Source of the DNA: Candidatus Rokuibacteriota bacterium
GTDB lineage: Bacteria; Methylomirabilota; Methylomirabilia; Rokubacteriales; CSP1-6
DNA length: 46,628 bases
Assembly: GCA_003220335.1 (NCBI GenBank)
Contig: QHSB01000061.1
Span: 1-46,628, forward strand
Reading direction: 5' to 3'
The position numbers and the translations under genes were made by a program. Each line of letters opens with the position of its first letter. Position 1 is the stretch's first letter. Positions 13,984-33,197 of this stretch are shown here, one piece after another. The notes beneath the pieces are model-generated. The model had not been told where the DNA came from and made no database searches. It worked only from the letters and a program-made list of their open reading frames with translations.

Positions 13984-14500
13984 ACGCCTCGTGATCCGCC
14001 TCCTCGAGCGGCGCGATCTCGAACAGGTCCGGCACCTGCACAATCACGACGAGACCTTGCTACGTCTTACCGACGTCTGGCCGGTGTCGGAGACACAACA
14101 GGAGGCGTGGTTCGAATCAGTTTCGAGCTCACGCACCGCGCGGCGCTACGTAGGCCGGCGCCGCGCCGACGACGCTCTCGTCGGGGTGTTTCGTCTGGAC
14201 CGGCTCGACCCCTGGAACCGAAACGCCTACGTCGGCGCCGACGTGGTGCCGGCCATGCGCCGCCAGGGCTATGCCGAAGAAATGTTCGCGTACTTCCTTG
14301 GCCACCTGTTCGACCACTGCGGCCTGCACCGGCTGGCGCTCGTCACGCTGACCTCGAACACGGCGGCGCTGGCCCTCTATCGGAAGCTGGGGTTCGTGGA
14401 GGAGGGGCGAGAGCGACAGGCAATCTTCCGGGACGGCGGATTCCAGGACCTCGTCCTGATGGGGCTGCTCGCCGAGGAGTGGCGTGGAAGGGCCGGGTAA
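13961..14500 (+). CDS. GNAT N-acetyltransferase (PseH/RimL-like)
   Basis: GGGGAG SD; RRQGYA acetyl-CoA motif, N..A..LY.KLGF.EEG..R, FRDG.F.D...MGLL..EW. Confidence 0.88.
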   Translation: MLPDSGTERLVIRLLERRDLEQVRHLHNHDETLLRLTDVWPVSETQQEAWFESVSSSRTARRYVGRRRADDALVGVFRLDRLDPWNRNAYVGADVVPAMRRQGYAEEMFAYFLGHLFDHCGLHRLALVTLTSNTAALALYRKLGFVEEGRERQAIFRDGGFQDLVLMGLLAEEWRGRAG

Positions 14501-17855: not shown

Positions 17856-18312
17856 GCGCGCACGCCTTCCGGATTCACGCCGTCGTCTGCAGCAACGCTT
17901 TGCTGTATTTCCAGTATCTCGGCCAGAATGTCCGAGAACTCGCCTCGAGGGACGCCGAGATCATGGTGGTGGCGCACTGCACGGATGCAGAGGCGCCGAG
18001 GGGCTCGAGCCAGCATGCGGCGGGCCTGACCTTGGCATTCCGCATGTGCTCTCCGAGGTGGGCATCGTCGGTGCCGCCTATGAGGAGACCTCCTACCTCG
18101 CCGCGCGTGACATCCCAGCGTTGGCCATGGTACATGTGAAGCCGTCGTCGGCCGAGGCGAGGCTGCTGCGTGACACCAACGACTATCACGAGGAATTCCA
18201 TCTCCGTAGCATGCCGCTGTCGGCACCGTTCAACGCCGCCACCGAGTCGTATCTGGGGAGCCTCGGCGCACTGGCTTCCGAGGGATGCGAGCGGGATGAG
18301 GACAGCGCCTGA
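17852..18312 (+). pseudogene. Deleted remnant of a paralogue of the GT-like gene at 2159-3079
   Basis: FRIHAVVCSNALLYFQYL ~ LNVHVTVSRNSLRYFVYM; RGSSQHA ~ RGSWGHA; GIVGAAYEE ~ GIVGTRLED; SYLAARDIPALAMVHVKPSSAEARLLRDTNDYHEEF ~ SYLDDRKIPYFALDIVKPTSTEAKALKGTNPYHDEI; RSMPLSAPF ~ RIDPLSVDF. Confidence 0.85.
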
Positions 18313-18446
18313 GATGGTGGACCTCTCCACGGGACACGCCGTCCGCGTGGCGTTCCGGTCCGACGCGCGCTCCGCAGTCGGGCGGGATCACTTCCGCCGC
18401 TGCCTCGCCTTGGCGCACGCCCTGCGGGCCTCTGGGACCGAGAGCC
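18203..18446 (+). repeat. Diverged direct repeat, copy 1 (GT-like 3' end plus pseG 5' end)
   Basis: Aligns by eye with 19501-19746 (e.g. ATGCCGCTGTCGGC, CGAGTCGTATCTG, GGATGAGGACAG, GGACCTCTCCA, CGCTGCCTCGCC). Confidence 0.85.
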
Positions 18447-18535
18447 TTGTGCTCCTCGCCGGGCCGAGTGGGCCTCCAGGCGACGCGGGCCGCGGGCGTG
18501 CTCGCGTACGCCGACGTCCGAAAGCGGCCGGATGA
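18314..18535 (+). pseudogene. N-terminal fragment of a PseG/SpsG-like hydrolase
   Basis: MVDLSTGHAVRVAFRSDARSAVGRDHFRRCLALAHALRASG is near-colinear with the N-terminus of 19614..20660, and similarity then ends. Confidence 0.8.
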
Positions 18536-19281
18536 TGGCGCCTCTCCGCGGCGAGCTCAAAGCCCTGGCCAAGCGGTTCCTGCGACGGCGGGAGCCGCCT
18601 GACTATCGCGAGATGCTCTTCGAGGACCTCCGCCGGTATGTGGGCGACACTCGCATGGCGCGCATCCTCGAGATCGGCCCGAAAGATGGCCGGGACACGC
18701 GCCGGTTGCTCGAGCTCGAGCCCGACGAACTGGTTCTCGTGGACCTCCCGCGCATGAAGGAGACCAACGAGCGATGGCTTCGCGAGCTCGACTCGTCCCG
18801 TATCCGCTACCTCTCGGCGAACTTCATGTACAGTGACGCGGCGGACACGTGGGCGCCGTTCGATTGCATTTGGTGCACCGGCGTGCTCTACCACAACCCC
18901 GAGCAGTTGCGGATGATGAAGCGGCTCTTCGACCAGCTGCGCGGCGGCGGTGTGCTCGTGCTGGAGTCGGCGACGATCCGGCGGCGGTGGCTGCGGCACG
19001 CGAACTGCGTGGAGATCATCTACCCACCGTCGGACGAGACCGAGCGAAAGTATCACCTCAGCCCGAACATCACGCATCTGCCGTCCGCACGTGCCGTCGA
19101 ATCCTGGCTGGCGATGGTCGGCTTCGAGCGGATCAGTCGCTCGGACTGTCACCGTAAAAGCTCGGCGGCGCTGGCGCGTCACCGCGTCGCGTATCTCGCG
19201 ACGAAGCCCGTGGCGCCGCGCGCGGGAACGTACTACTCCTTCGACGGCGATGAAGGTTTCGTCATCGGCGCGGCGCGGTAG
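18532..19281 (+). CDS. Class I SAM-dependent methyltransferase (CmoB/DUF1698-like)
   Basis: ILEIGPKDG, LVLVD, FDCIWCTGVLYH, GGVLVLES. Confidence 0.82.
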   Translation: MMAPLRGELKALAKRFLRRREPPDYREMLFEDLRRYVGDTRMARILEIGPKDGRDTRRLLELEPDELVLVDLPRMKETNERWLRELDSSRIRYLSANFMYSDAADTWAPFDCIWCTGVLYHNPEQLRMMKRLFDQLRGGGVLVLESATIRRRWLRHANCVEIIYPPSDETERKYHLSPNITHLPSARAVESWLAMVGFERISRSDCHRKSSAALARHRVAYLATKPVAPRAGTYYSFDGDEGFVIGAAR

Positions 19282-19329
19282 CGGGTGGTCGCGCGCGTCG
19301 CCATCGTGAGGCTCGCGCGGCACCTGGGT

Positions 19330-19598
19330 CGCTGGCGGCTGCGCCTGCCCAACGTCACCTGGGTGGCCCTCTCGCCTGCCCACGATTTCCGGACGCTCGA
19401 CGCGAGCCATGGGCTGGAGCGGACGATACGGATCCGGACGCTGGAGCAGGCGGCTCTGTACAATCCACGGTCCACCCGCGAGGCTCCCACAAGCATCCAT
19501 TCCGTACCATGCCGCTGTCGGCTCCGTTCTATGCCGCCGTCGAGTCGTATCTGCGGGGCCTGGGCGCACTGGCCTCCGCGGATGTCGGAGGCGGATGA
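19330..19598 (+). pseudogene. Second remnant of the GT-like family of 2159-3079
   Basis: LPNVTWVALSPAHDFRTLDAS...EQAALYNP ~ KPTTTWMALSPFHDFSALQVS...DLAKLYNLP; then, frameshifted, RGSHKHPFRTMPLSAPFYAAVESYL ~ RGSMTHRFRIDPLSVDFYDACDSFL. Confidence 0.85.
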
Positions 19599-19746
19599 GG
19601 ACAGGGCTCTGAGGTGGCGGACCTCTCCATGGGCGATGCGGTCGGTATAGCGTTCAGGACCGGCGCGGGATCCGCGCTCGGCCTGGGTCACCTCTCCCGC
19701 TGCCTCGCCCTCGCGCATGCGCTGCGCACCCTCGGCGCCGAGAGTC
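19501..19746 (+). repeat. Diverged direct repeat, copy 2
   Basis: Counterpart of 18203-18446. Confidence 0.85.
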
Positions 19747-20660
19747 GTATGCTCATCGACGGTGACCACCGGACGCTCGAGCTCGCGATGGCCGCGGGCT
19801 TCGAAGCGTCGGCGGTGGCGCGTGCGGATGATCCCGAAGCCACTCTCGAGTGGTGCGGGCGGCTCGGTGCGTCCGCCCTCGTCGTGGATTCCTACGGCTT
19901 CACGACCGACGACCTGGCGGTCTTCGTCGCGGCCGGGCGGCCGGTGGCCGTCTTCGACGACACCGCGAACCGCGAGCTGCCCGTCGACCTCGTCATCAAC
20001 GGTGGCGCTGGAGCGCGCGCGCTGCCGTACCGCGGCGGTCCTCGGACGCGCTATCTGCTCGGTCCGAGCTACCTCGCGTTGCGGCCCGAGTTCGCCGAGG
20101 CCGCGCCGCGAACGATTCACGATAATGTCCAGCGAGCTCTCGTGACCATCGGCGGCGCCGATCCCGGCCGACTCGTCGCTCCCCTCATGCGCTGGGCGAT
20201 CGCGGGGCTTGGCGCCATCACCCTCGACGTGGTGGCGGGGCCGCTCGTCGACGACGTCGCCTCCGTCCGCGCCGCCGTGGGCGCCGTCGCGGGCCAAGTG
20301 GTGCTGCACGAAAGCCCCAAGCATCTCCGCGATTTGATGCTGGCGGTAGACCTGGCCATTACCGGAGGCGGGCAGACCGTGTACGAGTTGGCGGCCACCG
20401 GCACCCCTATGGTGGCCATCGGTCTGGCGGCGAACCAGACGCCGAACGTCGACGCGATGCGGGCGGCAGGCGCGCTCGCCTACGCCGGCGACGTCCACGA
20501 CGCCGCGCTGGGCCCGGGCCTCGTGGCTACGCTGGCGGCGCTCGCCGCCGATCCCTGGCGGCGCGCCGACATGAGCCGAAGAGGTCGGGCCCTCGTGGAC
20601 GGTCGGGGGGCACCGCGGGTGGCCCGGGCACTGCTGGACCTGATCGGGCGGCGCCGATGA
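19614..20660 (+). CDS. pseG: UDP-2,4-diacetamido-2,4,6-trideoxy-altropyranose hydrolase-like protein (PseG/SpsG family)
   Basis: IAFRT.AG..LGLGHLSRCLALA, VVDSY, LLGPSY..LRPEF, VTIGGADP, AITGGGQTVYELAA.G.P, A.NQ, LVDGRGA.RV. Confidence 0.8.
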   Translation: MADLSMGDAVGIAFRTGAGSALGLGHLSRCLALAHALRTLGAESRMLIDGDHRTLELAMAAGFEASAVARADDPEATLEWCGRLGASALVVDSYGFTTDDLAVFVAAGRPVAVFDDTANRELPVDLVINGGAGARALPYRGGPRTRYLLGPSYLALRPEFAEAAPRTIHDNVQRALVTIGGADPGRLVAPLMRWAIAGLGAITLDVVAGPLVDDVASVRAAVGAVAGQVVLHESPKHLRDLMLAVDLAITGGGQTVYELAATGTPMVAIGLAANQTPNVDAMRAAGALAYAGDVHDAALGPGLVATLAALAADPWRRADMSRRGRALVDGRGAPRVARALLDLIGRRR

Positions 20661-21718
20661 GGCTCGGGCCGGCGGGCTCGTGGCTTCGGCGTGTCCTCGG
20701 CGCCGGGTCGCTGGAGCACGGCGCTGCCGCGAGCCCTGACGCGCCGGTTGCGCGCGTGGCCTTCAACATGAGGCCGACGTCGTCGCCGTGGGGTGGTGGC
20801 AACCAATGGCTCGTGCAGATGGTCCGCTCCCTCTCCGCGCGCGGCTGGGCGGTGTCGGACAACCTCGACGGTGTGCTGGACGCCATCGTCATCGTGGATC
20901 CTCGCGTGGGCGGCCTCGTGACGTTCGGCCCGGAGGACATCCGAGACTACCGCCGGCGCAGTCCGCGGGTGGTCTGCCTCCATCGGATCAACGAGTGCGA
21001 CGCTCGCAAGGCCACGACGATGATGGACGGGCTCCTGGCCGAGGCGAACGTGGTGACCGACTTCACGGTTTTCGTCTCGGACTGGCTGCGCGACTATCAC
21101 GTGAGCCGGTGGTTCGACGGCTCTCGGCTCCACGCCGTCATCCGCAACGGTGCCGATCCCGCCATCTTCCACCCGCTCGGCGCCGATCTGTTCCGGGTCG
21201 GCACGCCCTTCCGGCTCGTCACGCACCACTGGTCCGACAACTGGAACAAGGGCTTCGACGTGTATCGTGAGGTCGACGGCTTGATCGCCGCGGGCCGATT
21301 GCCGGACACGGAATTGTGGGTGATCGGCCGTTGGCCGAGCGAGATTCGTTGGAAGGCGGCCCGCACGCACGCTCCGGCCACCGGCACCGCGCTGGCATCG
21401 CTCCTTCGGCGCTGCCACGCCTATCTCACTGCCTCGCGCTCGGAGCCGGGCCCGATGCATCCGGTGGAGGGCGCCCAGTGCGGACTTCCCATCGTCTACC
21501 ACGAGGACGGCGGCGGACTGGTCGAGGTGAGTCGGCGTTACGGCGTCGGATTCCGCGACGACGTCCGGACCGCCATTCTCGAGACGAGGGAGCGCTGGGC
21601 GGAGCTACGTGCGCAAGTGCTGGAGCATGCGCCATCGGGCGACGCGATGTGCGTGGCGTATGCGCGACAACTCCAGTGGCTCTGCGCGACCCGGGCCCTG
21701 GCGCAGCGACCGTCGTGA
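20657..21718 (+). CDS. GT-B / GT4-like glycosyltransferase
   Basis: PWGGGNQ, HRINECD, TVFVSDW, IRNGAD..IF, VTHHWS.NWNKG, ASRSEP...H.VEGAQCGLP. Confidence 0.8.
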   Translation: MRLGPAGSWLRRVLGAGSLEHGAAASPDAPVARVAFNMRPTSSPWGGGNQWLVQMVRSLSARGWAVSDNLDGVLDAIVIVDPRVGGLVTFGPEDIRDYRRRSPRVVCLHRINECDARKATTMMDGLLAEANVVTDFTVFVSDWLRDYHVSRWFDGSRLHAVIRNGADPAIFHPLGADLFRVGTPFRLVTHHWSDNWNKGFDVYREVDGLIAAGRLPDTELWVIGRWPSEIRWKAARTHAPATGTALASLLRRCHAYLTASRSEPGPMHPVEGAQCGLPIVYHEDGGGLVEVSRRYGVGFRDDVRTAILETRERWAELRAQVLEHAPSGDAMCVAYARQLQWLCATRALAQRPS

Positions 21719-22860
21719 TGCGCATCTGCACGCCCCACTGCGGCCTCGATCCGGAAACACGCCTCGGTGGCGAGATGTACGAGGTCGAGGTGCTGCGCGA
21801 GATGACCAAGCGCGGCCTCGTGTTCGACATCCTGCTCGCTCGCCACAAGACGTATCCCGACGGCGTGCCCAACTGGACGGTGCACCGCCTGCCGATCGGA
21901 CGCGGGCTGCGCTGGCCGATCGCCGCGTTCGTGCTGCCGCCGGCCATCAGGCGCGTGTACAAGGCGACGCGCTTCGACCTGCTCCGCGCGCACTCGCTGC
22001 GCTACATCGGTCCCGCCGCGCTGGCGGCGCGCGCCTGGTACGGCGTCGACGTGCCGATCGTCGCGCACCACCATCACCTCGATCCCAGCTGGCTGAACCC
22101 CTTGATCGAAGGACGCGTGATGCGGGCGGTCGAGTGCGTGATCGTCGGGAGCGAGTTCGCCCGCCGGCAGGCCTCCGAGGAGCTAGGCGTCCCCACGGAA
22201 CAATTCGCCGTCGTTCCGTACGGTGTGGACCGCGCGCTCGCGCCGGGCCCGAGACCGGAAGCGCTCGCGCGCCGCCTCGGGGTGGCCGGCGCGCCGATCG
22301 TCCTGTTCCTGGGGTCACTCGAGCCGCGCAAGAACCTCGCCTTCCTGCTCGACGTATGGCACGAGGTCACGCGTATGCGCGGCGAGGCCAAGCTGATCGT
22401 GGCCGGCGGCGGACCGCGACTGGGCGAGCTGCGCAGGCGGGCGCGGGCGCTCGGCATCGAGGCCTCGGTCGTCTTCACCGGCCACGTTCCCGCCGCCGAG
22501 AAGCTCGACTACTATCGGCTGGCCGACATGCTCGTGTTCCCGTCCACGCTGGAAGGCTTCGGCCTCGTGGTGGCGGAGGCGATGTCGTGCGGGCTCCCGG
22601 TGCTCATCTCGGATCGCGGCTCGCTGCCGGAGCTGATCGTTCCCGCCGCCGGCGGCCTCGTCGCCGACCCGACAGACCGCGACGCCTTCGTGCGCGGGAT
22701 CCTCACCCTGCTCGGCGACGCCACGATCCGGCGCCGCTTCGGCACCGCCAACCGCGAGCGCGTGGAGCGGCTGTACCGCTGGGACGTCTGCGCGGCGGCG
22801 ACGGCGCGCGTTTACGAGGAGGTCCTGGAAGCATGGCGGGCGCGACGGAGGCCGCGGTGA
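21718..22860 (+). CDS. Glycosyltransferase family 4
   Basis: ATG 21718 overlaps upstream stop; VPYGVD, FLGSLEPRKNL, FPSTLEGFGLVVAEAMSCGLPV (EX7E). Confidence 0.9.
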   Translation: MRICTPHCGLDPETRLGGEMYEVEVLREMTKRGLVFDILLARHKTYPDGVPNWTVHRLPIGRGLRWPIAAFVLPPAIRRVYKATRFDLLRAHSLRYIGPAALAARAWYGVDVPIVAHHHHLDPSWLNPLIEGRVMRAVECVIVGSEFARRQASEELGVPTEQFAVVPYGVDRALAPGPRPEALARRLGVAGAPIVLFLGSLEPRKNLAFLLDVWHEVTRMRGEAKLIVAGGGPRLGELRRRARALGIEASVVFTGHVPAAEKLDYYRLADMLVFPSTLEGFGLVVAEAMSCGLPVLISDRGSLPELIVPAAGGLVADPTDRDAFVRGILTLLGDATIRRRFGTANRERVERLYRWDVCAAATARVYEEVLEAWRARRRPR

Positions 22861-23660
22861 GCGCCTGGTGGCCGCGGCCGCTGGTGGCCGCCGTCGACTC
22901 GCTCAACCGCCGGGGCGGTGCGGTCGCCGTGCGGCTCGTGAGGTACACGGGCAAGAGCCGCGAGGCGATTCATCCCAAGCATCTCGTCGACGCACCGTGG
23001 CACCACTGGTACGTCGACTATCTCCAGGCCGGCGACGTCGTGCTCGACGTCGGGTGCGCGAACGGCGCGCACACGCTGGCGGCGGCCGGCCGCGCGCGGC
23101 GCGTGTTCGGAATGGATGCGGACGTCACGCAGCTCGGCATCGCGGTGGCGGCCGCGCGCCGGCGCGGGATGGACAACGTGCGGCTGCTGGCGTGGGACGT
23201 GACGCAGCCGTTTCCGTTCCCGCCGGGCACGTTCGACGCCGTCCTGTTCCTCGACGTCATCGAGCACCTCGAGCCGCGGGTGGCCGTGCTGCGCGAGATC
23301 CGTCGCGTGCTGAAGCCGCGCGGACGGCTGCTCCTCTCGGCGCCGCATCGCGATACCTCGTGGCGGCGTCGCCTGCGCGCCGCCGGCCTCTTCGCGTTCT
23401 CGGACGCCGACCACAAGGTCGAGTACTCCCGGGACAGCCTGCTGGCCGAGCTGGCCGGCGGCGGCTTCACGCCGACGGAGCCCGTGATGCCCGTCGTGTA
23501 CGACACGCCGCTCGCCGGCCTGATCGACGTCGTCGGTGGCCTCGCGCTCGCGCCGTACGCGCGCCTCGTCCGCTGGAAGCGCGCGGCCGCCCTTCGCCAT
23601 CCCGAGGAATCGATCGGGTTCCGCATCGTCGCGCGCTCGCGGCCTGGAGCGGGGTCGTGA
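22857..23660 (+). CDS. Class I SAM-dependent methyltransferase (Methyltransf_11)
   Basis: GTGA overlap; VLDVGCANG, FPFPPGTFDAV, DVIEHL, RRVLKPRG. Confidence 0.88.
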   Translation: MSAWWPRPLVAAVDSLNRRGGAVAVRLVRYTGKSREAIHPKHLVDAPWHHWYVDYLQAGDVVLDVGCANGAHTLAAAGRARRVFGMDADVTQLGIAVAAARRRGMDNVRLLAWDVTQPFPFPPGTFDAVLFLDVIEHLEPRVAVLREIRRVLKPRGRLLLSAPHRDTSWRRRLRAAGLFAFSDADHKVEYSRDSLLAELAGGGFTPTEPVMPVVYDTPLAGLIDVVGGLALAPYARLVRWKRAAALRHPEESIGFRIVARSRPGAGS

Positions 23661-24775
23661 TTCTCGGCCTGCTCCCGGAGATTCGCGGGGGCCTCGGCGC
23701 CCTCGCCCAGACCGGGCAGCACACGCGCTTCATCGACGGCTACCTGCGGCCGTACGCGCGCGCGTTCGACGAGGTTCGCTACTTCAGCTACCGGCGGGAG
23801 ACGCTCGCCGACTTCACGACCGACGCGGAGCTGGCGGGGCGGGTTCGTGTCGTCGCGGGGGCCGCCTGGCATCCGTGGGTCTACGCCGGGCTCATGGGGC
23901 TCCGCCACGGACGCGCGCTGGCCGGATGCTCCGTCCTCCGCGTGTTCCACCTCACCGGGGTGATCCCGGCGCTCGTGGCGCGGCGCCGGTTCGGCGTGCC
24001 GTTCGCCACGACGTACGGCTTTCACTACGACCGGCTCGCGCGCACACCGGCGCGCGCGTGGATGCATCGACGGCTCGAGCGGCTGGCGCTGGCCGAGGCC
24101 GACGCGGTGATCGTGACCACGCCCGAGCTGGCGGCGTACGTCGCGGACCGCGCCCGCTCGCGGGAGGCGGTGCATCTGCTGCCGAACGCCGTCGACGCGG
24201 GCGCGTTCCGTCCGATGCCGCGGCCACCGGCCTCCATCCCGACCGTGCTGTACGTCGGCCGCCTCTCGCCCGAGAAGAACCTCGGCGCGCTGATCGCCGC
24301 CGCCGCGAAGCTGCGCGGTCGTCTCGACGTGACGCTGCGTTTCGTCGGCGACGGTGCGCTCCGCGACGCGCTCGCCGGCGAGGCGGCGCGCGCCGGGGTG
24401 CGCCTCGAGCTCTCGCCGGTGGTCGACCACGCCCGGCTGCCGTCCATCTATGCCGCCGCCGACGTCTTCGTTCTGCCCTCGTTCACCGAAGGCCACGCCA
24501 AGGTGCTGCTGGAGGCGATGAGCTGCGGCGTGCCGTGCGTGGCGTCGAACGTCGGCGGCAACCGGGCGGCCATCGTGGACGGTCGCACCGGGCTGCTGGT
24601 CGATCCCGCCGACGCCGGTGCGCTCGCCGACGCCGTCGAGCGTCTGATCACGGACCGCGAGCTCGCGCGGCGCCTGGGCGATGCCGCCCGGCGCGAGATC
24701 GTCGAGCGCTACGATCTGACGACGGCCCTCACACGCGAGATCGAGCTGCTGCGCATGCTCGGGCATCGCCGCTGA
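23657..24775 (+). CDS. Glycosyltransferase family 4
   Basis: GTGA overlap; LPNAVD, YVGRLSPEKNL, FVLPSFTEG...VLLEAMSCGVP. Confidence 0.9.
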   Translation: MILGLLPEIRGGLGALAQTGQHTRFIDGYLRPYARAFDEVRYFSYRRETLADFTTDAELAGRVRVVAGAAWHPWVYAGLMGLRHGRALAGCSVLRVFHLTGVIPALVARRRFGVPFATTYGFHYDRLARTPARAWMHRRLERLALAEADAVIVTTPELAAYVADRARSREAVHLLPNAVDAGAFRPMPRPPASIPTVLYVGRLSPEKNLGALIAAAAKLRGRLDVTLRFVGDGALRDALAGEAARAGVRLELSPVVDHARLPSIYAAADVFVLPSFTEGHAKVLLEAMSCGVPCVASNVGGNRAAIVDGRTGLLVDPADAGALADAVERLITDRELARRLGDAARREIVERYDLTTALTREIELLRMLGHRR

Positions 24776-25464
24776 CCGACCTCATCCTCCGCCATCTGCC
24801 ACCGGCGCCCGCGCCGATCCTCGAGGCGGGATGCGGTCTCGGCCAGTACGTGGTGCTGCTGCGCGGGCGTGGTTACCACGCCGTCGGCGCCGACTGGGCG
24901 GTCGACCCGCTCCGCGTCTGCCGCGCGTGGGCCAAGGACACGCCGCTGGTGGCCATGGACCTGGGACAGCTGGCGTTCGGCGCCGGCGCGTTCGGAGCGT
25001 ACGTCTCGCTCGGAGTCGTCGAGCACGACGCCGGCGGCCCCGATCGCATCCTCGCCGAGGCGCATCGCGTGCTGGCGCCCGGCGGCACGCTGCTCGTCTC
25101 GGTGCCCTACGTGAACGTCGTCCGTCGTCTCGGCGCGCGGCGGATCAGGCGCGCGAACGAGCGCGTCCGCGCCGCCGGCGGAACGTTCTATCAGTTCGCG
25201 TTCTCGCGGCGCGAGGCGACGGCGGCGGTGGAGCGCGCCGGCTTCCGCGTCGTGCAGGCGACGCCGTACGATCCCGCGCGCGTGTTGCGCAGCGCGTGGC
25301 GCCGCTGGCGGCCGGCCCGCGGCGGGGGGCCGGGCGCCGCGGACGTCGGCGGGGCGACGCCGGCGCGCGGCGGGGTGCGGGGCCTGGCGCGACGGCTGCT
25401 GTACACGAGGCCGGCCCTGCACGCGCTCGGCCACATGATCCTGCTGGTGGCGCTGAAGCGATGA
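24772..25464 (+). CDS. Class I SAM-dependent methyltransferase; start uncertain (CTG, or 5'-truncated)
   Basis: ILEAGCGLG, VGADW, SLGVVEH, RVLAPGG.LLVSVP; no ATG/GTG/TTG close upstream of motif I. Confidence 0.75.
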   Translation: MTDLILRHLPPAPAPILEAGCGLGQYVVLLRGRGYHAVGADWAVDPLRVCRAWAKDTPLVAMDLGQLAFGAGAFGAYVSLGVVEHDAGGPDRILAEAHRVLAPGGTLLVSVPYVNVVRRLGARRIRRANERVRAAGGTFYQFAFSRREATAAVERAGFRVVQATPYDPARVLRSAWRRWRPARGGGPGAADVGGATPARGGVRGLARRLLYTRPALHALGHMILLVALKR

Positions 25465-26273
25465 GCGCGCCGGCCGTCTCCGTCGTGATGGCCGTCTACA
25501 ACGGCGAGCCGTGGCTGGGCGAGGCGCTGGCCAGCATCTTGGGACAGTCGCTGATCGACCTCGAGTTCATCGTGGTGGACGACGGCTCGACCGACGGGAC
25601 GCCGAAGCGCCTCGCTGCGATCGGCGACACGAGGGTGTCCGTGCTTCGACAGTCGCGCGGCGGGCAGACGGCGGCGCTGAATCGCGGTCTCCGGGCCGCG
25701 CGCGCGCCGCTGATCGCGCGCATCGACGCCGACGACGTCGCGCTCCCCGAGCGCCTCGCCCGGCAGGCCGCGTTCCTGGCCGACCATCCCGACGTCGGAC
25801 TGCTCGGTACCGCCGCGCGCGAGATCGCGCCGTCAGGGGGGGTGGTCCAGACGCTCGTGCCGCCCGCCGACGACCGTGCGCTTCGGCGCGCGCTCATCCG
25901 CGCGAACCCGTTCATCCACTCCGCCGTGATGTTCCGGCGCGCCGTGATCGATCTGGTAGGCGGATACGACGAGTCGTTCGCCGTTGCCCAGGACTACGAC
26001 CTGTGGCTCCGGATGAGCCGCGTCACGCAGCTTGCCAACCTCACGGAGCCGATGGTCCTGCGCCGGCTCGCGCCGGGCCGGCTGTCGAGCGCCCGCGACT
26101 CGACCCGGCTCCGCGACGAGATCATCGCCAAGGTTCGCGCGCTGCGGAGTGGGGCATCTCCGGTGTGGTCGGCCGTGTTTGTGGCCAGGCCGCTCGGGGC
26201 GCTACTGCTTCCGACGCTGCTGCGGCGTGCCGCACGCGCGGTTATTGCGCGGACGCCGCGCGAAGTGCGGTAG
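25461..26273 (+). CDS. Glycosyltransferase family 2
   Basis: VSVVMAVYN, VVDDGSTD, ALNRG, IARIDADD, AQDYDLWLR. Confidence 0.92.
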   Translation: MSAPAVSVVMAVYNGEPWLGEALASILGQSLIDLEFIVVDDGSTDGTPKRLAAIGDTRVSVLRQSRGGQTAALNRGLRAARAPLIARIDADDVALPERLARQAAFLADHPDVGLLGTAAREIAPSGGVVQTLVPPADDRALRRALIRANPFIHSAVMFRRAVIDLVGGYDESFAVAQDYDLWLRMSRVTQLANLTEPMVLRRLAPGRLSSARDSTRLRDEIIAKVRALRSGASPVWSAVFVARPLGALLLPTLLRRAARAVIARTPREVR

Positions 26274-26308
26274 GCGGCGGTGAGACGTCGGCGGTCCTCC
26301 TGAGCGCG

Positions 26309-27418
26309 ATGACCCCGTCGCCAGGACCGATCCTGCAGCTCCTCGTGTCGACCCGGCCGGGCGGTGGCCCCCAGCACGTCGCGCTGCTGGGGCGCGGGCT
26401 CCAGGCGCGAGGCTGGCAGCCGATCGTGGCCGGGCCCGCCGACGGCGTGCTCTTCGACGGCCTCGCGAAGGCGGGGATCGAGACCGTGAAGCTGGCCACG
26501 AATCGCCTGCGTCCGTCCACGCTCGCGCGCGTCGTCGGGCTCGTGCGCGAGCGCCGCATCAGCCTCGTGCACTCCCACGGCAAGGGCGCCGGCCTCTATG
26601 GTCGGCTGGCGGCCCGGATCACCGGCGTCCCCGCCATCCACACGTTCCACGGCATCCACTTCGAACGGTATGCGGCGCCCGCGCGCGCGGCCTACCTCGC
26701 GCTCGAGCGGCGGCTGTCGGCCTGGACGGCGATCGTTGTCAACGTCTCGCGCACGCAAGAGCGCGAGGGGCTGGCGCTGCGGCTGTTCACCGAGCGGCAG
26801 AGTCGGGTGGTCCAGAACGGCGTGGACGTGGCGCGGCTGACCGCGACGGCGCTCGATCGCCGGGAGGCGCGGCGCGAGCTCGGCCTGCCCGGGGACGCGA
26901 TGGTCGTGGGCACCGTCGCACGCTTCGATGCGGTCAAGCACCTCGATGTCCTGCTCCGCGCGGTGGCGCGCGTGCCGGACGTCATCCTCGTGCTGGTCGG
27001 GGACGGCGAGGAGTCGGCGCGCTTGCGCGGACTCGCCGGCTCGCTCAGCCTGGGCCCGCGCGCCGTCTTCGCGGGCGAGCGCGTGGACGCGGCGAGGCTG
27101 CTGCCGGCCTTCGACGTCTACGCGACGACGTCGCACAAGGAGGGCATGCCGCTCGCCGTGCTCGAGGCGATGGCGCTCGGCCTGCCGGTACTGGCGAGCG
27201 ACATCCCGGCGCACCGCGAGGTGCTGCCGCCCGCGTCGCCCGGGCTCTTTGCCGGGGACGTCGACGCGATGGCGGCGGCCCTCGCCCGGCTCGCGGGCGA
27301 TGCGGCCGCGCGCGCGGCGCTGGGCGCCGAGAATCGCATGCGCGCGCGCAGCGAGTTCGACGCGCGCGAGATGGTCGGCGCGCTGCACGCGCTCTACGGA
27401 GAGGTGCTGGGAGTGTAG
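26309..27418 (+). CDS. Glycosyltransferase family 4
   Basis: GGGPQHV, VHSHG, HTFHG, VQNGVD, EGMPLAVLEAMALGLPV. Confidence 0.9.
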   Translation: MTPSPGPILQLLVSTRPGGGPQHVALLGRGLQARGWQPIVAGPADGVLFDGLAKAGIETVKLATNRLRPSTLARVVGLVRERRISLVHSHGKGAGLYGRLAARITGVPAIHTFHGIHFERYAAPARAAYLALERRLSAWTAIVVNVSRTQEREGLALRLFTERQSRVVQNGVDVARLTATALDRREARRELGLPGDAMVVGTVARFDAVKHLDVLLRAVARVPDVILVLVGDGEESARLRGLAGSLSLGPRAVFAGERVDAARLLPAFDVYATTSHKEGMPLAVLEAMALGLPVLASDIPAHREVLPPASPGLFAGDVDAMAAALARLAGDAAARAALGAENRMRARSEFDAREMVGALHALYGEVLGV

Positions 27419-27431
27419 TAATATCGGGCGG

Positions 27432-29444
27432 ATGCGGATCCTCGTCACCGGGGTCACCGGGTTCGTCGGCAGCCATCTCGCCGAGTGGGCCCTCGCCCAG
27501 GGCGCCGCCGTCGTGGGCTCGGTCCGCTGGCGCAGCACGACCGAGCACATCGACCATCTCCGCGACCGCCTCACGCTCATCGGCGCGGACCTGCGTGACC
27601 TGTCGTCCGTCCGCTTGCTGCTGGAGCAGGCCCGCCCGGACTACATCGTCCACCTCGCGGCGCAGAGCTTCGTGGGCGCCTCCTGGGAGGCGCCGAGCGA
27701 GACGCTGCTCACCAACGCGATCAGCCAGATGAACCTGTTCGAGGCGATCCGCCAGCTCGGCGCGACGGCGACGCGCTTTCTCGTGATCGGCTCGAGCGAG
27801 GAGTACGGCCTCGTCTACCCCGACGAGCTGCCCATCCGCGAGACGAACCCGCTCCGCCCGCTGTCGCCGTACGCCGTGAGCAAGGTCACGCAGGATCTGA
27901 TGGGCTATCAATACTTCAAGAGCTATGGCCTCGACATCGTGCGCGCGCGCGCGTTCAATCACAGTGTCGGCCGTCACACGCCGGTGCTGTTGCGCGACGA
28001 CCGCACTGGACTGATCGATATCCGATATATCGGGGAGCTTCGCCGATATAAGCCGGCGGGGTATTTGAGCGGTCAACGCTTGGACGACGGAACGACGGTC
28101 TGGGACATGCGGCGCCACCCGCTGTCGGTATGGGCCGACGGCACGTGGTCCAAGATTGCGCATCTGTCTTGCCATTCGCTCCACTCGGACGATCGTGTGA
28201 TTCGACTTGTGGCGAGCGGCGGAATCGTCGAAGTCACGGGCGAGCATTCCGTCATGGCACCGGCTCAGGCTGGTCGCGTCGCGATCTCGGCGAGTCGCCT
28301 TGCGCTCGGGGATCGCGTGGCCATGGTCGCGATGCCGAGTAGCTCGGGAATGTGGGTGCACGAGGATGTCGCCTGGTTACTCGGTTTTTTTGTCGCGGAA
28401 GGATGTATCACCAATGGCAAGGTCAGAATCGACAATAAGGACCGAAAGGCGTTGGAACGGTGTGCTGAGATTTTCCTTCAGCATTTCGGCCTCGACACGT
28501 ATTTCGTCGAAGGTGCGGCTGACGTATGGCGCCTCACCATAAGGAAGCCTGAAGTATTCGCAGAGTGGTTGCGCCCTCAGGTCTATGCGAGCGACCGTAA
28601 CAAGCGCGTTCCGCGAAGTATCCTCAACGCGCAGACGGATGCAAAGCTCGCCTTCCTCCGCGGCTACAACGAGGGCGACGGATTGAAAGCCGGCCATGGT
28701 ATCGACGAGTTCAAAAGCTTCAAGACGAAGTCGCCGATTCTCGTCCTTGGTCTTTGCTACCTCGTGGCCAACACGACGCGGCAGCGTATGTGTCTGAATA
28801 CGGAAGTTCGCAGCGCCGGCACGTACTACCAGATGAATCTGAACTCGCCGATTGCGGGACACGAGGCCTGGGGGCGTCACCTGCAAGTTCCCGACGACGT
28901 CATCAAGAAGATCGAAGCAGTTCCATATGAAGGCGAAGTATGGGACTTCGAAACCGAGGACCACGTATTTCACGCGGGCCTCGGGGGAAACCTCGTGCAC
29001 AACACGGGACCCCCTCGGGGCGACGCCTTCGCCACGTCGTCGTTCGCGAAGCAGATCGCGGAGGCGGAGGCGGGGATTCGTGAGCCGTTCGTGAGCGTGG
29101 GCGATCTCAAGCCCACGCGGGACTTCTCCGACGTGCGCGACATCGTGCAGGGCTACTGGACGCTGCTCGAGCGGGGGACGGCGGGCGAGGTCTACAACCT
29201 CTGCTCCGGCGTCGACTGGTCGATCGAGCGCATGCTGAACTTTTTGATGTCGCAGTCCACGCTCGACCGCATCGAGATCCGGCCCGACCCCGCACGCCTC
29301 CGGCCGTCGGACGTCCCGGTGCTGCGCGGCAGCGCCGAGAAGATCCACCAGGCGGTCGGCTGGCGCCCCCGCATTCCGCTCGAGCAGACCTTGAGCGACC
29401 TCCTCGAATATTGGCGAGCGCAGATACGACGCCGGCCGCGGTAG
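27432..29444 (+). CDS. rmd: GDP-4-keto-6-deoxy-D-mannose reductase / GDP-mannose dehydratase-family SDR (Rmd-like), intein-containing precursor (670 aa; 323 aa after splicing)
   Basis: GVTGFVG, HLAAQSFV, IGSSEEYG, SPYAVSK, RAFNH|intein|TGPPRG, SSFAKQIAE, GDLKPTRDFSDVRD, GEVYNLCSG, RLRPSD. Confidence 0.85.
   Translation: MRILVTGVTGFVGSHLAEWALAQGAAVVGSVRWRSTTEHIDHLRDRLTLIGADLRDLSSVRLLLEQARPDYIVHLAAQSFVGASWEAPSETLLTNAISQMNLFEAIRQLGATATRFLVIGSSEEYGLVYPDELPIRETNPLRPLSPYAVSKVTQDLMGYQYFKSYGLDIVRARAFNHSVGRHTPVLLRDDRTGLIDIRYIGELRRYKPAGYLSGQRLDDGTTVWDMRRHPLSVWADGTWSKIAHLSCHSLHSDDRVIRLVASGGIVEVTGEHSVMAPAQAGRVAISASRLALGDRVAMVAMPSSSGMWVHEDVAWLLGFFVAEGCITNGKVRIDNKDRKALERCAEIFLQHFGLDTYFVEGAADVWRLTIRKPEVFAEWLRPQVYASDRNKRVPRSILNAQTDAKLAFLRGYNEGDGLKAGHGIDEFKSFKTKSPILVLGLCYLVANTTRQRMCLNTEVRSAGTYYQMNLNSPIAGHEAWGRHLQVPDDVIKKIEAVPYEGEVWDFETEDHVFHAGLGGNLVHNTGPPRGDAFATSSFAKQIAEAEAGIREPFVSVGDLKPTRDFSDVRDIVQGYWTLLERGTAGEVYNLCSGVDWSIERMLNFLMSQSTLDRIEIRPDPARLRPSDVPVLRGSAEKIHQAVGWRPRIPLEQTLSDLLEYWRAQIRRRPR
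27963..29003 (+). mobile_element. Intein with LAGLIDADG homing endonuclease (347 aa)
   Basis: Block A starts SVGRHTPVL (Ser1); block B VEVTGEHSV (TxxH); LAGLIDADG blocks AWLLGFFVAEG and LAFLRGYNEGDG; block F VWDFETEDHVF; ends LVHN with Thr as +1. Removal restores FNH-TGP. Visibly lower GC than the exteins. Confidence 0.95.
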
Positions 29445-30604
29445 GCGCGCGCGCGCGGCCGGGCGGCGCGTCGGCGCCCCGGGTGGCCCTCGTGCACGAC
29501 TGGCTCACCGGCATGCGCGGCGGCGAACGCTGTCTCGAGGTCTTCTGCGAGCTGTTCCCGGAGGCGCCGCTGTTCACGCTGCTGCACGTGCCCGGGAGCG
29601 TCTCGCCGGTGATCGAGCGCCGCCGCGTGATCACCTCGTTCATCCAGCGGCTGCCCGGCGCCGTCTCGCGCTACCGCCAGTACCTGCCGCTGTTCCCGGC
29701 CGCCGTCCGTGGATTCGACCTGTCGGGCTTCGACCTCGTCATCTCGCTGAGTCACAGCGTGGCCAAGGCCGTGCAGCGGCCGGCCGACGCGCTGCACATC
29801 TGCTACTGCTTCAGCCCGATGCGCTACGTGTGGGACCTCTACGACGACTACTTCGGCCCGCGCGCGCCGCGGCTGACGCGGTGGACGATGCCGCCGGTCG
29901 CCGCCGCGCTGCGCGCGTGGGACCGTCGCACCGGGGGCGTGGACGTCTTCCTCGCGATCTCGCATCACATCGCCGAGCGGATTCGCCGCGTGTACGGCCG
30001 CGGCGCCGACGTCATCCACCCGCCGGTGGACGTCGCGCGGTTCCGGCCGGCCGCGCGCGTGGACGACTTCTATCTCGTCGTCTCCGCGCTGGTGCCCTAC
30101 AAGCGCGTGGACCTCGCGGTCGCCGCCGCGGGCCGGCTCGGCCGGCGCCTCGTCGTCGTCGGGACGGGGCCGGAGGAGCGGCGGCTGCGTGCCTCGGCGG
30201 GCGCGGCGGTGCAGTTCCTCGGCTGGCGCTCCGACGCGGAAGTCGCCGATCTCTACGCGCGCTGCCGCGCGGTGCTCTTCCCCGCGGTGGAGGATTTCGG
30301 CATCGTGCCGCTGGAGGCGGCGGCGGCGGGGCGGCCGACCATCGCCCTCGGCCGCGGCGGCGCGCTCGAGACGATGGTGGACGTCCACGCCTCGGATGCG
30401 CCGCCGACCGCCGTGTTCTTCACCGAGCAGACGGAGGCCGCGCTCGCCGACGCCATCCTGACCTTCGAGCGCGCCGCGCACCGGTTCGAGCCCGCCGCGC
30501 TGCGCGCGCGCGCCGAAGAGTTCGACCTGCCGGTCTTCCGCCGGCGCATCGCGGACTACGTGGACCTGCGCTGGGGGGAATTCCTCGCGAGGCGCGCGTG
30601 CTGA
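29411..30604 (+). CDS. Glycosyltransferase family 4
   Basis: RVALVHDWLTGMRGGE, YCFSPMRYVWD, IHPPVD, LVPYKRVD, EDFGIVPLEA; exact start uncertain. Confidence 0.9.
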   Translation: MASADTTPAAVGARARPGGASAPRVALVHDWLTGMRGGERCLEVFCELFPEAPLFTLLHVPGSVSPVIERRRVITSFIQRLPGAVSRYRQYLPLFPAAVRGFDLSGFDLVISLSHSVAKAVQRPADALHICYCFSPMRYVWDLYDDYFGPRAPRLTRWTMPPVAAALRAWDRRTGGVDVFLAISHHIAERIRRVYGRGADVIHPPVDVARFRPAARVDDFYLVVSALVPYKRVDLAVAAAGRLGRRLVVVGTGPEERRLRASAGAAVQFLGWRSDAEVADLYARCRAVLFPAVEDFGIVPLEAAAAGRPTIALGRGGALETMVDVHASDAPPTAVFFTEQTEAALADAILTFERAAHRFEPAALRARAEEFDLPVFRRRIADYVDLRWGEFLARRAC

Positions 30605-31980
30605 AGGCTCACTCGCGGGTCTTCGAGCACCTGATGCTCGCCCTCGACCTCGTGATCGTCGCCGGCTGCTGGCTGTTCGCGTACGGCCTGCGGTTCCACG
30701 TCTTCGGCCACGGCAACATTCCCCCGTTCCGCGACTATCTGCTGCAGCTCGTGCCCATCCTGGCGGTGTGGGGGGTCGCGTTCAAGACGTTCAATCTCTA
30801 CCGCCCGTACCGCTTCGGCTCACGGCTGTCCGAGTGGAAGGACATCGGCAAGGCCTCCACGGTCGGCGCGCTGGTCCTCGTCGCCATCATGAGCTTCGTC
30901 TTCCGCGGTTACGACTATTCGCGCGCCGTCATCCTCATCTTCTGGATCGTGTCGATCGCGGCCGCCTATCTGGGGCGGCAGGCCTTCCGCGAGGCGCTGC
31001 GGGTCGCGCGCCGGCGCGGGTACAACCAGCGCTACGCGGTGGTCGTGGGCGGCGGCGAGCCGGCGGCGGAGATCATGCGGGTGCTGCAGAAACGGCGCGA
31101 CGTCGGCATCCGCGTGCTCGGGATCCTCGGCGACAAGCTCGACGGCACGGCCGGGGCGCCGTGGCTGGGTGCGCCGGAGGACATCCGCGCCGTCCTCGAC
31201 ACGCGTCCGGTGGACATCGTCATCATCGCGCTCCCGCACGCCGAGTATGCGCGGCTGGCCGGGATCCTGAACGAGATCGGCGACGACCCGGTGACGATCC
31301 ACCTCGTGCCCGACGTGTTCAGCGTCGCGCTGCGCGGCGGCGTCGAGGAATTCGAGACGGTGCCGATCATCCACCTGCGCGAGTCGCCCCTCGACGGGTG
31401 GAACCGCATCCTGAAGCGCGTGTGCGACGTGGCGCTGGGCACCGTCGCCCTCGGGCTGATGCTGCCCGTGATGCTGGTCATCGCGCTCGCCATCAGACTG
31501 GGCTCGCCCGGCGCGATCCTCTACCGCCAGGAGCGGATGGGAATCGACGGCCGCCGCTTCGGGATGCTGAAGTTCCGCACCATGGGCGTGGACGCGGAGG
31601 CGGACACCGGCCCGCGCTGGGCGATCCGCGACGATCCGCGTCGAACCCGAGTCGGCGTCTTCCTGCGTCGCACGAGCCTCGACGAGCTGCCCCAGCTCCT
31701 CAACGTCTTGCGTGGCGACATGAGCCTCGTCGGGCCCCGGCCCGAACGGCCGAGCTTCGTCGAGGAGTTCCGCCGGCGCGTGCCGCGCTACATGCTGCGC
31801 CACAAGGTGAAGGCGGGGATCACCGGCTGGGCTCAGATCAACGGCTGGCGCGGCAACACGTCGATCGAGGAGCGCATCAAGTGCGACCTCTATTACATCG
31901 AGAACTGGTCGATGTCGCTGGACCTCAAGATCCTGCTCCAGACACTCTGGCTCGGCTTCCGCAATCGGAACGCATATTGA
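30598..31980 (+). CDS. wcaJ: Undecaprenyl-phosphate glucose phosphotransferase (WcaJ family priming transferase)
   Basis: N-terminal TM helices; LKRVCD, YRQERMG, KFRTM, DDPRRTRVG, SLDELPQL.NVLRGDMSLVGPRPERP, KAGITGWAQING.RG, DLYYIENWS. Confidence 0.92.
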   Translation: MLKAHSRVFEHLMLALDLVIVAGCWLFAYGLRFHVFGHGNIPPFRDYLLQLVPILAVWGVAFKTFNLYRPYRFGSRLSEWKDIGKASTVGALVLVAIMSFVFRGYDYSRAVILIFWIVSIAAAYLGRQAFREALRVARRRGYNQRYAVVVGGGEPAAEIMRVLQKRRDVGIRVLGILGDKLDGTAGAPWLGAPEDIRAVLDTRPVDIVIIALPHAEYARLAGILNEIGDDPVTIHLVPDVFSVALRGGVEEFETVPIIHLRESPLDGWNRILKRVCDVALGTVALGLMLPVMLVIALAIRLGSPGAILYRQERMGIDGRRFGMLKFRTMGVDAEADTGPRWAIRDDPRRTRVGVFLRRTSLDELPQLLNVLRGDMSLVGPRPERPSFVEEFRRRVPRYMLRHKVKAGITGWAQINGWRGNTSIEERIKCDLYYIENWSMSLDLKILLQTLWLGFRNRNAY

Positions 31981-33197
31981 GCCGGCGCCGCGCCCTCGTG
32001 CTGCGCGACGCGCTCGTCGCCGCGCTCGTTGTCGGGCTGGCCGTGTCGATCACCCTGTCGGAGACATCGCTGGTTGTCCTCGCCGTCTGGCTGGTGTGGA
32101 CACGCCACGCGCGCACCATGTCCCGGACGTCGTGGCCGCTGCTGGCCCCGGTGCTTGCGTTCAGCGCGTGGTCGATCCTCACGGCCGCGCTGTCCTCGAC
32201 ACCCCTGGAGAGCCTGCGGGCGACGAAGACGCTGCTGCCGCTCGCGACGTTGTGGATCGTGTTCGGCGTGCTCGACGACGCGAGCGCGGCGCGGCGCTTC
32301 GCGTCCCGGCTGCTGTGGGCCCTGGCGGGCGTCGCCGTCGTCTCGATCCTGCAGGTCACGACGTGCGCGCCCTCGCGGCTCGACGCCTTCGATTCGTCGT
32401 GGCCGCCCGTCGTCCGGAGCGTGTTCGGCAAGTGTCGGCGCGCGCACGGCTTCTACAGCATCTACATGACGCTCGGCGGTGTGCTGGCGGTGGCGCTCGC
32501 CGCCACGTTGCCGACGCTCGCCGTCGCCGGCCGTCGCAGAGCCGCCAGCACCGTCGCCTGGCTCACGAGCGCGGTCGCCCTCGCATTGACGCTCGTGCGT
32601 GGCGCGTGGCTCGGCTTCGGCGCCGGTGTCCTTCTCGCGCTCACCGGCGTGCGCCGGTGGTCAATCGCGGTCGCGGTCGTGGCGGCGGCCGTCTTGCTGC
32701 TTCTCGCGGTGCCACGCGTGCGCCAGCGGGCCGAGACGATCGCCGACCCTGCCGATCCGACGGCGCGGGAGCGCTTCGCGATGTTCGACGGCGGGCTGAC
32801 GATGCTGCGCAGCCATCCCTTCATCGGTGTCGGCCTTGGCGGCGTCAAGCGCCTCTATCCGACCTATGCCCCGCCCGAAGCCGTCCGGCGGCACACGAGC
32901 CACCTGCACAATACCCCGCTGCAGATCGCCGTCGAGCGCGGCCTCGTCGGTCTCGCGCTCTGGCTCTGGATCTTCGCCGCCTTCTTCGCGCGCGCGTGGG
33001 GCTTGCTCCGCCGCGTGCCCGGGGACGCCGTGGCCGAGCGCGCGCTCGTCGTCGGCGCGCTGGCCGCGGTGACGGCCTTCCTGGTGGCCGGCCTCTTCGA
33101 ATACAACTTCGGCGACACGGAGGTGCTGCTGGTGACCCTGAGCGTGATGGCGCTGCCATTCGTCGTCGAGCGCGACCTCGCGGGGCGCCCGGCGTGA
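31977..33197 (+). CDS. O-antigen ligase / Wzy_C family membrane protein
   Basis: Many TM helices; RAHGFYS, LTLVRGAWLG, HPFIGVG.G, HLHNTPLQIAVERGLVG. Confidence 0.88.
   Translation: MSRRRALVLRDALVAALVVGLAVSITLSETSLVVLAVWLVWTRHARTMSRTSWPLLAPVLAFSAWSILTAALSSTPLESLRATKTLLPLATLWIVFGVLDDASAARRFASRLLWALAGVAVVSILQVTTCAPSRLDAFDSSWPPVVRSVFGKCRRAHGFYSIYMTLGGVLAVALAATLPTLAVAGRRRAASTVAWLTSAVALALTLVRGAWLGFGAGVLLALTGVRRWSIAVAVVAAAVLLLLAVPRVRQRAETIADPADPTARERFAMFDGGLTMLRSHPFIGVGLGGVKRLYPTYAPPEAVRRHTSHLHNTPLQIAVERGLVGLALWLWIFAAFFARAWGLLRRVPGDAVAERALVVGALAAVTAFLVAGLFEYNFGDTEVLLVTLSVMALPFVVERDLAGRPA

Follow-up and report, generated by a model that had tools for sequence, protein, structure and literature searches.

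The window analysed here is a 46.6-kb stretch of DNA (46,628 nucleotides, contig C303) from a metagenome-assembled genome (MAG) of Candidatus Rokuibacteriota; the MAG totals 5.5 Mb in 743 contigs and has a completeness of 94.9% and a contamination of 7.1%. It contains a gene for a short-chain dehydrogenase/reductase (SDR) of the extended type, resembling the GDP-4-keto-6-deoxy-D-mannose reductases (RMD), that is interrupted by what is probably a mobile intein. The gene (27432–29444, plus strand) is a single open reading frame (ORF) of 670 amino acids and is stop-free throughout. Pfam matches it to GDP_Man_Dehyd (3.7e-73) and Epimerase in two stretches that lie on either side of an insert of 1041 nt (347 amino acids, SVGRHTP...NLVHN) flanked by RAFNH and TGPPRGD. 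GC content drops from ~0.72–0.75 outside the insert to 0.54–0.59 inside it. In an alignment with the solved RMD structure 2pk3, query residues 1–177 match chain residues 13–182 and query residues 526–662 match chain residues 184–319, making the host contiguous over the insert, and at the insertion point nine of nine uninterrupted orthologs, all taken from related genomes, have the sequence FNH[D/T/E/S]GPRRG (one ortholog row, G020, is flagged as unpublished; no result hinges on it alone). On both grounds the boundaries of the intein are exact.

The insert has the make-up of a standard class-1 intein carrying a LAGLIDADG endonuclease with two motifs, and is predicted to be capable of both splicing and cleavage. 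It has a Ser nucleophile at position 1, a block B of the form TxxH, a terminal His-Asn followed by Thr+1, an exact in-frame insertion, and a HINT fold. Both endonuclease motifs retain an acidic residue (E146 and D239), and the Pfam LAGLIDADG_3 profile, a check put forward by the sequence-only reading, scores 35.5–37.8 bits against a cut-off of 22.5. Residues S1, T92, H95, E146, D239, D328, H346, and N347 are invariant in all nine orthologous inteins from species-representative genomes, and H95, D239, and N347 are still invariant in a 42-row alignment that includes distant relatives. An AlphaFold2 model built on this alignment (pLDDT 93.5, pTM 0.92) was compared with the PDB using Foldseek. The best match was the TliVMA intein 7qsu (E 5.6e-23, TMq 0.69), followed by 7qss, PhoVMA 7qst, PI-PkoII 2cw7, PI-PfuI 1dq3, and PI-SceI 1vde; the first 13 matches are all inteins, and the mini-intein 5o9i is matched as well. 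The inserted domain has the fold expected for its motifs and matches I-DmoI-type endonucleases, including I-DmoI and I-Tsp061I. A profile search of PDB sequences returned the same intein structures. A full-length LAGLIDADG intein with these limits and motifs had been called from the letters alone, and Pfam, the orthologs, and the model all bear out that call. The splicing chemistry is predicted from conserved residues, and endonuclease activity and its target are likewise predictions. The splice nucleophiles, Ser1 and Thr+1, are both hydroxyl residues, and a catalytic cysteine is absent. Four cysteines that are not splice residues (C70, C167, C265, and C277) and an LSCH motif at residues 68–71 are invariant in all nine inteins; they lie at about 28164–28175, 28461, 28755, and 28791 of the window, and their role may be structural or metal-binding.

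The host has the features of an extended SDR, namely GVTGFVG, GSSEEYG, Y147xxxK151, a two-domain organization, and the two Pfam families named above. Its relatives in the PDB are, in order, RMD 2pk3 (2.7e-73), the GDP-heptose 4,6-dehydratase 7us5 (5.6e-50), and the reductase 6x3b. A true GMD (GDP-mannose 4,6-dehydratase) was ruled out, as the host scores 134 bits with the GMD equivalog TIGR01472 (NCBIfam) against a cut-off of 415; some source names do say GDP-mannose 4,6-dehydratase, which is probably too specific. Intein-less relatives are named GDP-4-dehydro-6-deoxy-D-mannose reductase by one source. Both exteins align end to end with 2pk3, the RMD of Aneurinibacillus thermoaerophilus, which shares GSSEEYG and YxxxK with the host but has no intein. 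GSSEEYG also fits the [ST]SE...Yx3K pattern that one paper gives for GMD (PMC8987622). The substrate of the host is uncertain because the loop of its family, NH[T/S/D/E]GPRRG, is closer to GMD and 7us5 than to the NHIGPGQS of 2pk3. Our best guess is a putative GDP-4-keto-6-deoxy-D-mannose reductase. A true gmd is present on contig C530 of the same MAG (441 bits against the NCBIfam cut-off of 415) and would supply the substrate of such a reductase. A search of this 94.9%-complete MAG (query P0002, E ≤ 1e-20) revealed no close second RMD paralog, the only other match being the gmd at 43% identity.

The sequence-only reading placed the insert in the active-site motif of an Rmd/Gmd-clade SDR within a glycan locus. 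The host clade and the locus agree with Pfam, the 2pk3 alignment, and the neighboring genes. As for the motif, the segment that is split is the conserved FNH/GPRRG loop, which binds substrate; the catalytic triad itself is not split, and Y147xxxK151 lies 26 residues upstream. In GMDs, the Asn of the FNH loop contacts GDP according to one review (PMC9415975), with the equivalence of the residue here based on alignment by eye. Window positions 29013–29015 read CCT (Pro) at C-extein position +4 (TGPPRG), where the other 19 full-length cluster members that were read (13 with and 6 without the intein) all have Arg. At position 29014, contigs of two sequencing runs, X1 and X2, have a G at full depth. 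Either the conserved GPRRG loop has a rare variant here or the MAG consensus is in error. The coordinates of all features are given in Table 1.

TABLE 1 Features of the intein-bearing gene and its locus, in window coordinates
Feature	Position	Strand	Basis or remark
Glycan-synthesis locus	10902..33197	+	Pfam; gene starts approximate
N-extein, 177 aa	27432..27962	+	Rossmann part of RMD-like GDP-sugar SDR; GVTGFVG, GSSEEYG, Y147xxxK151; ends RAFNH; 2pk3 chain 13–182
Intein, 347 aa, class 1, predicted LAGLIDADG homing endonuclease	27963..29003	+	1041 nt in all 9 carrier genomes
N-terminal splicing (HINT) part, ~residues 1–125	27963..28337	+	All-beta in model; domain limit approximate
Ser1	27963–27965	+	First intein codon
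Block B, T92-G-E-H95	28236–28247	+	Within N-terminal HINT part
LAGLIDADG endonuclease domain, ~residues 126–310	28338..28892	+	Pfam LAGLIDADG_3 above cut-off; helices in model; Foldseek; dN/dS
Endonuclease motif 1, LLGFFVAEG (E146)	28377–28403	+	Sequence motif
Endonuclease motif 2, FLRGYNEGDG (D239)	28653–28682	+	Sequence motif
C-terminal splicing part, ~residues 311–347	28893..29003	+	Block F VWDFETEDHVFHAG; block G NLVHN (H346, N347)
C-extein, 146 aa + stop	29004..29444	+	Substrate-binding part of SDR; starts Thr+1 (29004–29006); 2pk3 chain 184–319
Positions near the junction that differ from empty allele L038	27956, 27962, 29004, 29014, 29023	+	Presumed endonuclease target or co-conversion zone

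Several known inteins were compared with this one. The VMA inteins of Thermococcales (TliVMA, 7qsu and 7qss; PhoVMA, 7qst) have, like the window's intein, a HINT domain with an inserted two-motif LAGLIDADG endonuclease and are similar in size (profile E 1.2e-10). They differ in sequence (~20% identity), in their host, an archaeal ATPase subunit, and in their first residue; they were crystallized as C1A mutants and therefore have Cys1, in contrast to Ser1 and Thr+1 here. PI-PkoII (2cw7), PI-PfuI (1dq3), and PI-SceI (1vde and others) are characterized homing endonucleases with the same two-domain plan (Foldseek E 1e-17 to 4e-12), but they are larger (425–537 amino acids), have extra DNA-recognition regions, and are only 12%–15% identical. 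Their hosts are a DNA polymerase, a ribonucleotide reductase, and a vacuolar ATPase. The only sugar-nucleotide case that the main text of a 2016 survey lists is the intein of archaeal UDP-glucose/GDP-mannose dehydrogenase (UDP-GlcDH, COG1004), with 10 inteins in Euryarchaeota (PMC4760082); it differs from the window's intein in enzyme fold, insertion site, and domain of life, and is set apart here by description only.

A search with the whole precursor was used to see how common this arrangement is, and returned 828 proteins at E ≤ 1e-10. Among the best 120 of these, identity ranges from 99% to 46%, most full-length relatives have 659–673 amino acids, and LAGLIDADG_3 is annotated in 115. Source names among the relatives include Rokubacteria, Methylomirabilota, Binatia, Limnocylindria, Acidimicrobiia, and Fervidibacter. 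The other five of the best 120 are of the same length and lack the annotation; by eye, the second LAGLIDADG motif is degraded in four of them (P0094, P0096, P0101, and P0103) and seemingly intact in the fifth (P0118). To judge from their sequences, the relatives with a degraded motif would represent homing-cycle elements that have begun to decay. A query with only the N-extein gave 8 intein-bearing proteins among the best 120 longer ones, the other 112 being ~320 amino acids long. One relative, P0110 (1128 amino acids, 58% identical to the window gene), has two inteins, one at the same site as in the window and the other, with helix-turn-helix domains, inside the catalytic GS/SEEYG motif (slashes in sequences such as this one mark the insertion point).

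Within the phylum (251 species-representative genomes of Methylomirabilota/Rokubacteria), the full 347-amino acid intein occurs in nine genomes from nine different genera of one family (f1). The inteins of the other eight genomes are 73%–78% identical to that of the window. Among 11 congeners, eight carry the gene without interruption (60%–89% N-extein identity), one has a broken gene, and two yielded no ortholog, at genome completeness values of 79% and 81%. The broken gene, in G011, is spread over two contigs; C450 (locus L010) stops after the first 8 intein residues, and C432 starts 2 residues before the intein ends. This assembly probably broke inside the intein, through mixed alleles or uneven coverage.

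An intein-only HMMER search of a library of representatives at 50% identity gave 1149 hits at E ≤ 0.001. Pfam was run on 60 of the best 150, and 33 have GDP_Man_Dehyd hosts; this selection is biased, since short fragments were dropped throughout and, from about P0177 onward, proteins of 670–740 amino acids with a match starting near residue 180–205 were chosen. Other hosts among the 60 are Peptidase_S8, GT2, GT4, CTP_transf_3, PAPS reductase, and family-B DNA polymerase. Nine of these proteins (P0128, P0130, P0147, P0148, P0153, P0160, P0161, P0169, and P0184) have inteins 30%–39% identical to that of the window; they are subtilases, GT2 or GT4 glycosyltransferases, sugar cytidylyltransferases, or a PAPS reductase, hosts that are rarely named for inteins. 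Outside its own family, the nearest relatives of the window's intein are those of true GMDs at FNHE/SPRRG (27%–37% intein identity); the enzyme is a paralog, and the conserved loop that holds the intein is the same. P0123, which like the window gene belongs to the RMD-like family, has up to 46% intein identity. True GMDs with a readable N-junction have FNHE/C... or FNHE/T..., and nearly all GMD hosts end N/SPRRG, which places their site one codon downstream of FNH/S...HN/TGPRRG in the window. The GMD inteins thus differ in following a Glu, in preceding Ser+1, and, in those that were read, in starting with Cys or Thr as opposed to Ser, and they represent a distinct insertion allele. The two host families offer a hydroxyl residue for the +1 position at different places.

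The host class and the site had been expected from the letters to be rarely described. Literature searches turned up no account of an RMD, GMD, or other extended SDR that hosts an intein; the supplementary tables of the 2016 survey may list such hosts (PMC4760082). By contrast, an intein at this very site is common in sequence data, and true GMDs carry related inteins at a site one codon downstream. The same reading had proposed a search for occupied and intein-less alleles and for other hosts, and each of these was recovered: occupied alleles in 115 of the best 120 relatives, GDP_Man_Dehyd hosts in 33 of the 60 scanned proteins, and an empty allele on metagenome contig L038 and in protein cluster P0272.

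Cluster P0272 has seven members from three sources, six of which have 323 amino acids and no intein. The N-extein of these six is identical to that of the window over 177 of 177 residues in five cases and has a single difference in one; their C-exteins have 3–6 differences. The +1 residue is Ser in all six and Thr in the window and in all 13 full-length intein-bearing members that were read, from a 90% cluster that comprises 70 distinct sequences. On L038 the empty allele lies among the same neighboring genes, and the contig is colinear and gap-free with the window, with 50 of 1883 nt differing on the N side (including the upstream GT4 gene) and 9 of 644 on the C side. Ten of 972 extein nucleotides differ, and five of these ten lie within 27 nt of the junction. 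When differences were placed at random, at least one 27-nt stretch held 5 or more of the 10 in 73 of 200,000 placements (scan statistic, P ~4e-4). Two explanations fit this clustering: co-conversion over short tracts, and target-site changes by which the surviving empty allele is protected. An RNA-library contig from run X16 matches 27761–27961 with two differences and then continues with TTCGGGACCCCGTCGG, which is the intein-less His-Ser-Gly-Pro-Arg-Arg of P0272. P0093 (689 amino acids, truncated) has an N-extein that is 98% identical to that of the window and an intein that is only 77% identical; either the gene background of the window carries a second intein variant here, or the assembly is chimeric.

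The gene itself was also found in other data sets. At least 0.78 of its sampled words are present in each of fifteen soil runs, which come from 14 studies, and contigs of run X1 bridge both junctions (27855–28175 and 28194–29518). RNA-library contigs match inside the intein at 27980–28198 with 0 differences, which speaks to presence in RNA libraries only and not to transcription, strand, or level. One apparent joint from 27322 to 27978, with 21 other letters, looks like chance or a foreign contig and was not used.

Composition, selection, and phylogeny were compared among the nine carriers and their intein-less relatives. GC content at third codon positions (GC3) is 0.93 in the window exteins, as in intein-less orthologs, and 0.70 in the window intein, which is the lowest of the nine (other inteins 0.76–0.91, exteins 0.84–0.95). 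Co-conversion could not be read from GC3, as the dip in junction-adjacent 20-codon bins (0.85–0.90, versus 0.95–1.00 farther away) is too small. Median NG86 dN/dS over 36 pairs is 0.11 both for the whole intein and for residues 121–300, the endonuclease part, with dS saturated at ~1.4. The low ratio indicates that the endonuclease is under purifying selection, and the saturated dS indicates that the intein family is old. On an 18-row extein tree, the intein label needs 4 changes, at least 2 of which are forced by well-supported branches, and the window gene is sister to the intein-less gene of G001 (support 100/98). The claim of recent homing is therefore retained in a weaker form: the patchy distribution, the empty allele with 177 of 177 N-extein residues identical, the low GC3, and purifying selection suggest either a recent gain in the window lineage or a loss in its neighbors, and the direction of the last event is not claimed.

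Taken together, we consider it quite likely that the insert is a selfish, mobile class-1 intein with a homing endonuclease, residing in an RMD-like GDP-sugar SDR and engaged in an ongoing homing cycle. The gene would be transcribed and translated as one 670-amino acid precursor. Ser1 would undergo an N-O acyl shift, the N-extein would be handed to Thr+1, and Asn347 would cyclize with the help of His346, freeing the intein; an O-N shift would then restore a normal peptide bond. The spliced product would be a 323-amino acid enzyme that, in GDP-D-rhamnose synthesis, probably catalyzes the GDP-4-keto-6-deoxy-D-mannose reductase step. Alleles that lack the intein would be cleaved at the reconstituted site by the precursor or by the intein once freed, and repair from an intein-bearing copy would copy the intein in with short flanks. 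In this lineage, nearly identical exteins are found with the intein, without it, and possibly with a different intein.

Several observations weigh against a mobile intein in an active cycle. Pfam Intein_splicing (PF14890), the other profile that had been proposed as a check, reaches 23–26 bits, below its gathering score of 35.8; we give the low score little weight because the endonuclease insert interrupts the Pfam model and sub-threshold scores are also seen for many confirmed relatives. Support for this protein comes from sequence and model, with splicing, cleavage, and enzyme activity as predictions. The tree rows are unevenly sampled, the intein-less rows being best search hits and the intein-bearing rows phylum-wide carriers. 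Among the five junction differences, that at 29014 is specific to the window and does not separate alleles with the intein from those without. P0093, one truncated ORF from a metagenome, could be a chimeric assembly. A near-identical donor intein on another extein background was not found, the best matches outside its own cluster being 86% (a fragment) and 82% identical. No joint that skips 27963–29003 was found among those listed for contigs of DNA runs X1 and X2, which have 86 further loose ends, so absence is not implied. Across 109 relatives, intein identity co-varies with extein identity (r = 0.74 for the N-extein), and the intein and extein trees agree at the clade level. Vertical descent with losses, and not repeated invasion, could therefore account for much of the history. 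Long-term descent with the host gene, or co-conversion of the exteins, is part of that history.

In the best of the alternatives, the intein is an old, vertically inherited resident whose endonuclease no longer homes, and presence and absence arise by strain recombination and occasional precise loss. The agreement of the trees, the co-varying identities, the saturated dS, the missing near-identical donor, and the relatives with degraded LAGLIDADG motifs all suit such a resident. We nevertheless regard it as unlikely, given a dN/dS of 0.11 on the endonuclease part with E146 and D239 invariant in nine of nine inteins, and given the substitutions that cluster at the insertion point between alleles with and without the intein. 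An intein GC3 of 0.70 against 0.93 suggests DNA not yet adjusted to the genome, and P0093 has a different intein variant on a 98% identical N-extein.

A mobile intein might also be more than a neutral passenger. Its nearest relatives are found in RMD-like and GMD enzymes, GT2, GT4, sugar cytidylyltransferases, and subtilases, and it could belong to a large, undescribed guild of soil and subsurface inteins that specialize on surface-glycan genes, with polymorphism or conditional splicing changing the cell-surface glycan and having effects on, for example, phage or predator recognition. We think this improbable.

Slightly less probable still is that conditional splicing, through redox, metals, or temperature, makes the intein a post-translational switch on GDP-6-deoxysugar and surface-glycan synthesis, as the sequence-only reading had proposed. 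An intein in the substrate-binding motif should leave the precursor inactive until it is spliced, a close second RMD paralog was not found in the MAG at the thresholds given above, and the intein is strongly conserved, including its four invariant non-catalytic cysteines. Yet nothing points to regulation. Disulfide and oxidation traps are the cysteine-based redox control known from other inteins, whereas Ser1 and Thr+1 provide no catalytic cysteine for them. Intein-free alleles exist with nearly identical exteins, and 8 of 11 congeners and 242 of 251 genomes of the phylum have no intein; the nearly identical alleles indicate that the host does not need it. The conservation of the endonuclease active site also suits a mobile element and not a switch.

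It is highly improbable that the insert remains unspliced and the SDR is a pseudogene or non-functional. Such a dead gene might explain the sub-threshold Intein_splicing score and the Pro at C-extein +4, found in the window only and Arg in the 19 other full-length members that were read, with X1 and X2 contigs also reading G at 29014. Against it, the ORF is intact across 2013 nt in a 69% GC genome, all splice residues are kept, extein GC3 is 0.93 as in intein-less orthologs, and the exteins are conserved across the best 120 clusters. The RNA-library contigs that match the intein without differences also argue for a live gene, with DNA carry-over possible. An artefact of assembly or binning that joined the insert into the gene, conceivable in a MAG of 743 contigs with 7.1% contamination and a perfect 2244-nt inverted repeat on the same contig, can be practically dismissed, since the same architecture occurs in 115 of the best 120 clusters from several sources, its own cluster has 70 distinct sequences, contigs of independent soil runs span both junctions, and the insert is in frame with exact boundaries.

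Intein surveys emphasize hosts in replication, repair, and nucleotide metabolism. Here a bacterial GDP-sugar SDR carries what is predicted to be a textbook mobile intein, with the same site occupied in many uncultured soil bacteria and a neighboring site occupied in true GMDs. The type of element is familiar; the RMD-like host, the site one codon upstream of the GMD site, and the allele-level polymorphism are what this analysis adds. On exteins that are ~99% identical, an intein allele occurs alongside an empty allele with differences piled up at the target and possibly a second intein variant. This polymorphism makes it possible to study invasion, fixation, decay, loss, and target-site resistance, as parts of a natural homing cycle, in an uncultured phylum with no more than metagenomes and cloned genes. 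For annotation, it is a warning that 670-amino acid "GDP-mannose 4,6-dehydratases" in Methylomirabilota are intein-bearing RMD-like enzymes, and such inteins can break assemblies, as in G011.

The surrounding glycan-synthesis locus codes for a PseB-like dehydratase, a DegT aminotransferase, a GNAT protein, methyltransferases, a GT2, several GT4, a Bac_transf initiating transferase, and a Wzy_C protein. The intein-bearing gene lies between two GT4 genes, one ending at 27418 and the other starting at 29411; Bac_transf follows to 31980 and Wzy_C occupies 31980–33197. Farther along the window, 34153–36396 and 37287–39530 form the perfect 2244-nt inverted repeat mentioned above, with arms that are 100% complementary and separated by 890 nt. 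It mirrors sigma-70, HPPK, and FolB genes and part of a FAA-hydrolase gene, and looks like a hairpin-type assembly artefact, the alternative being a real palindromic duplication. A second intein was identified elsewhere in the same MAG (L001, G000:C489:1-2094). It is of the LAGLIDADG type, ends VVVHN/SN, and lies in an SMC_N (RecF/RecN/SMC) ATPase on a contig that is cut at both ends.

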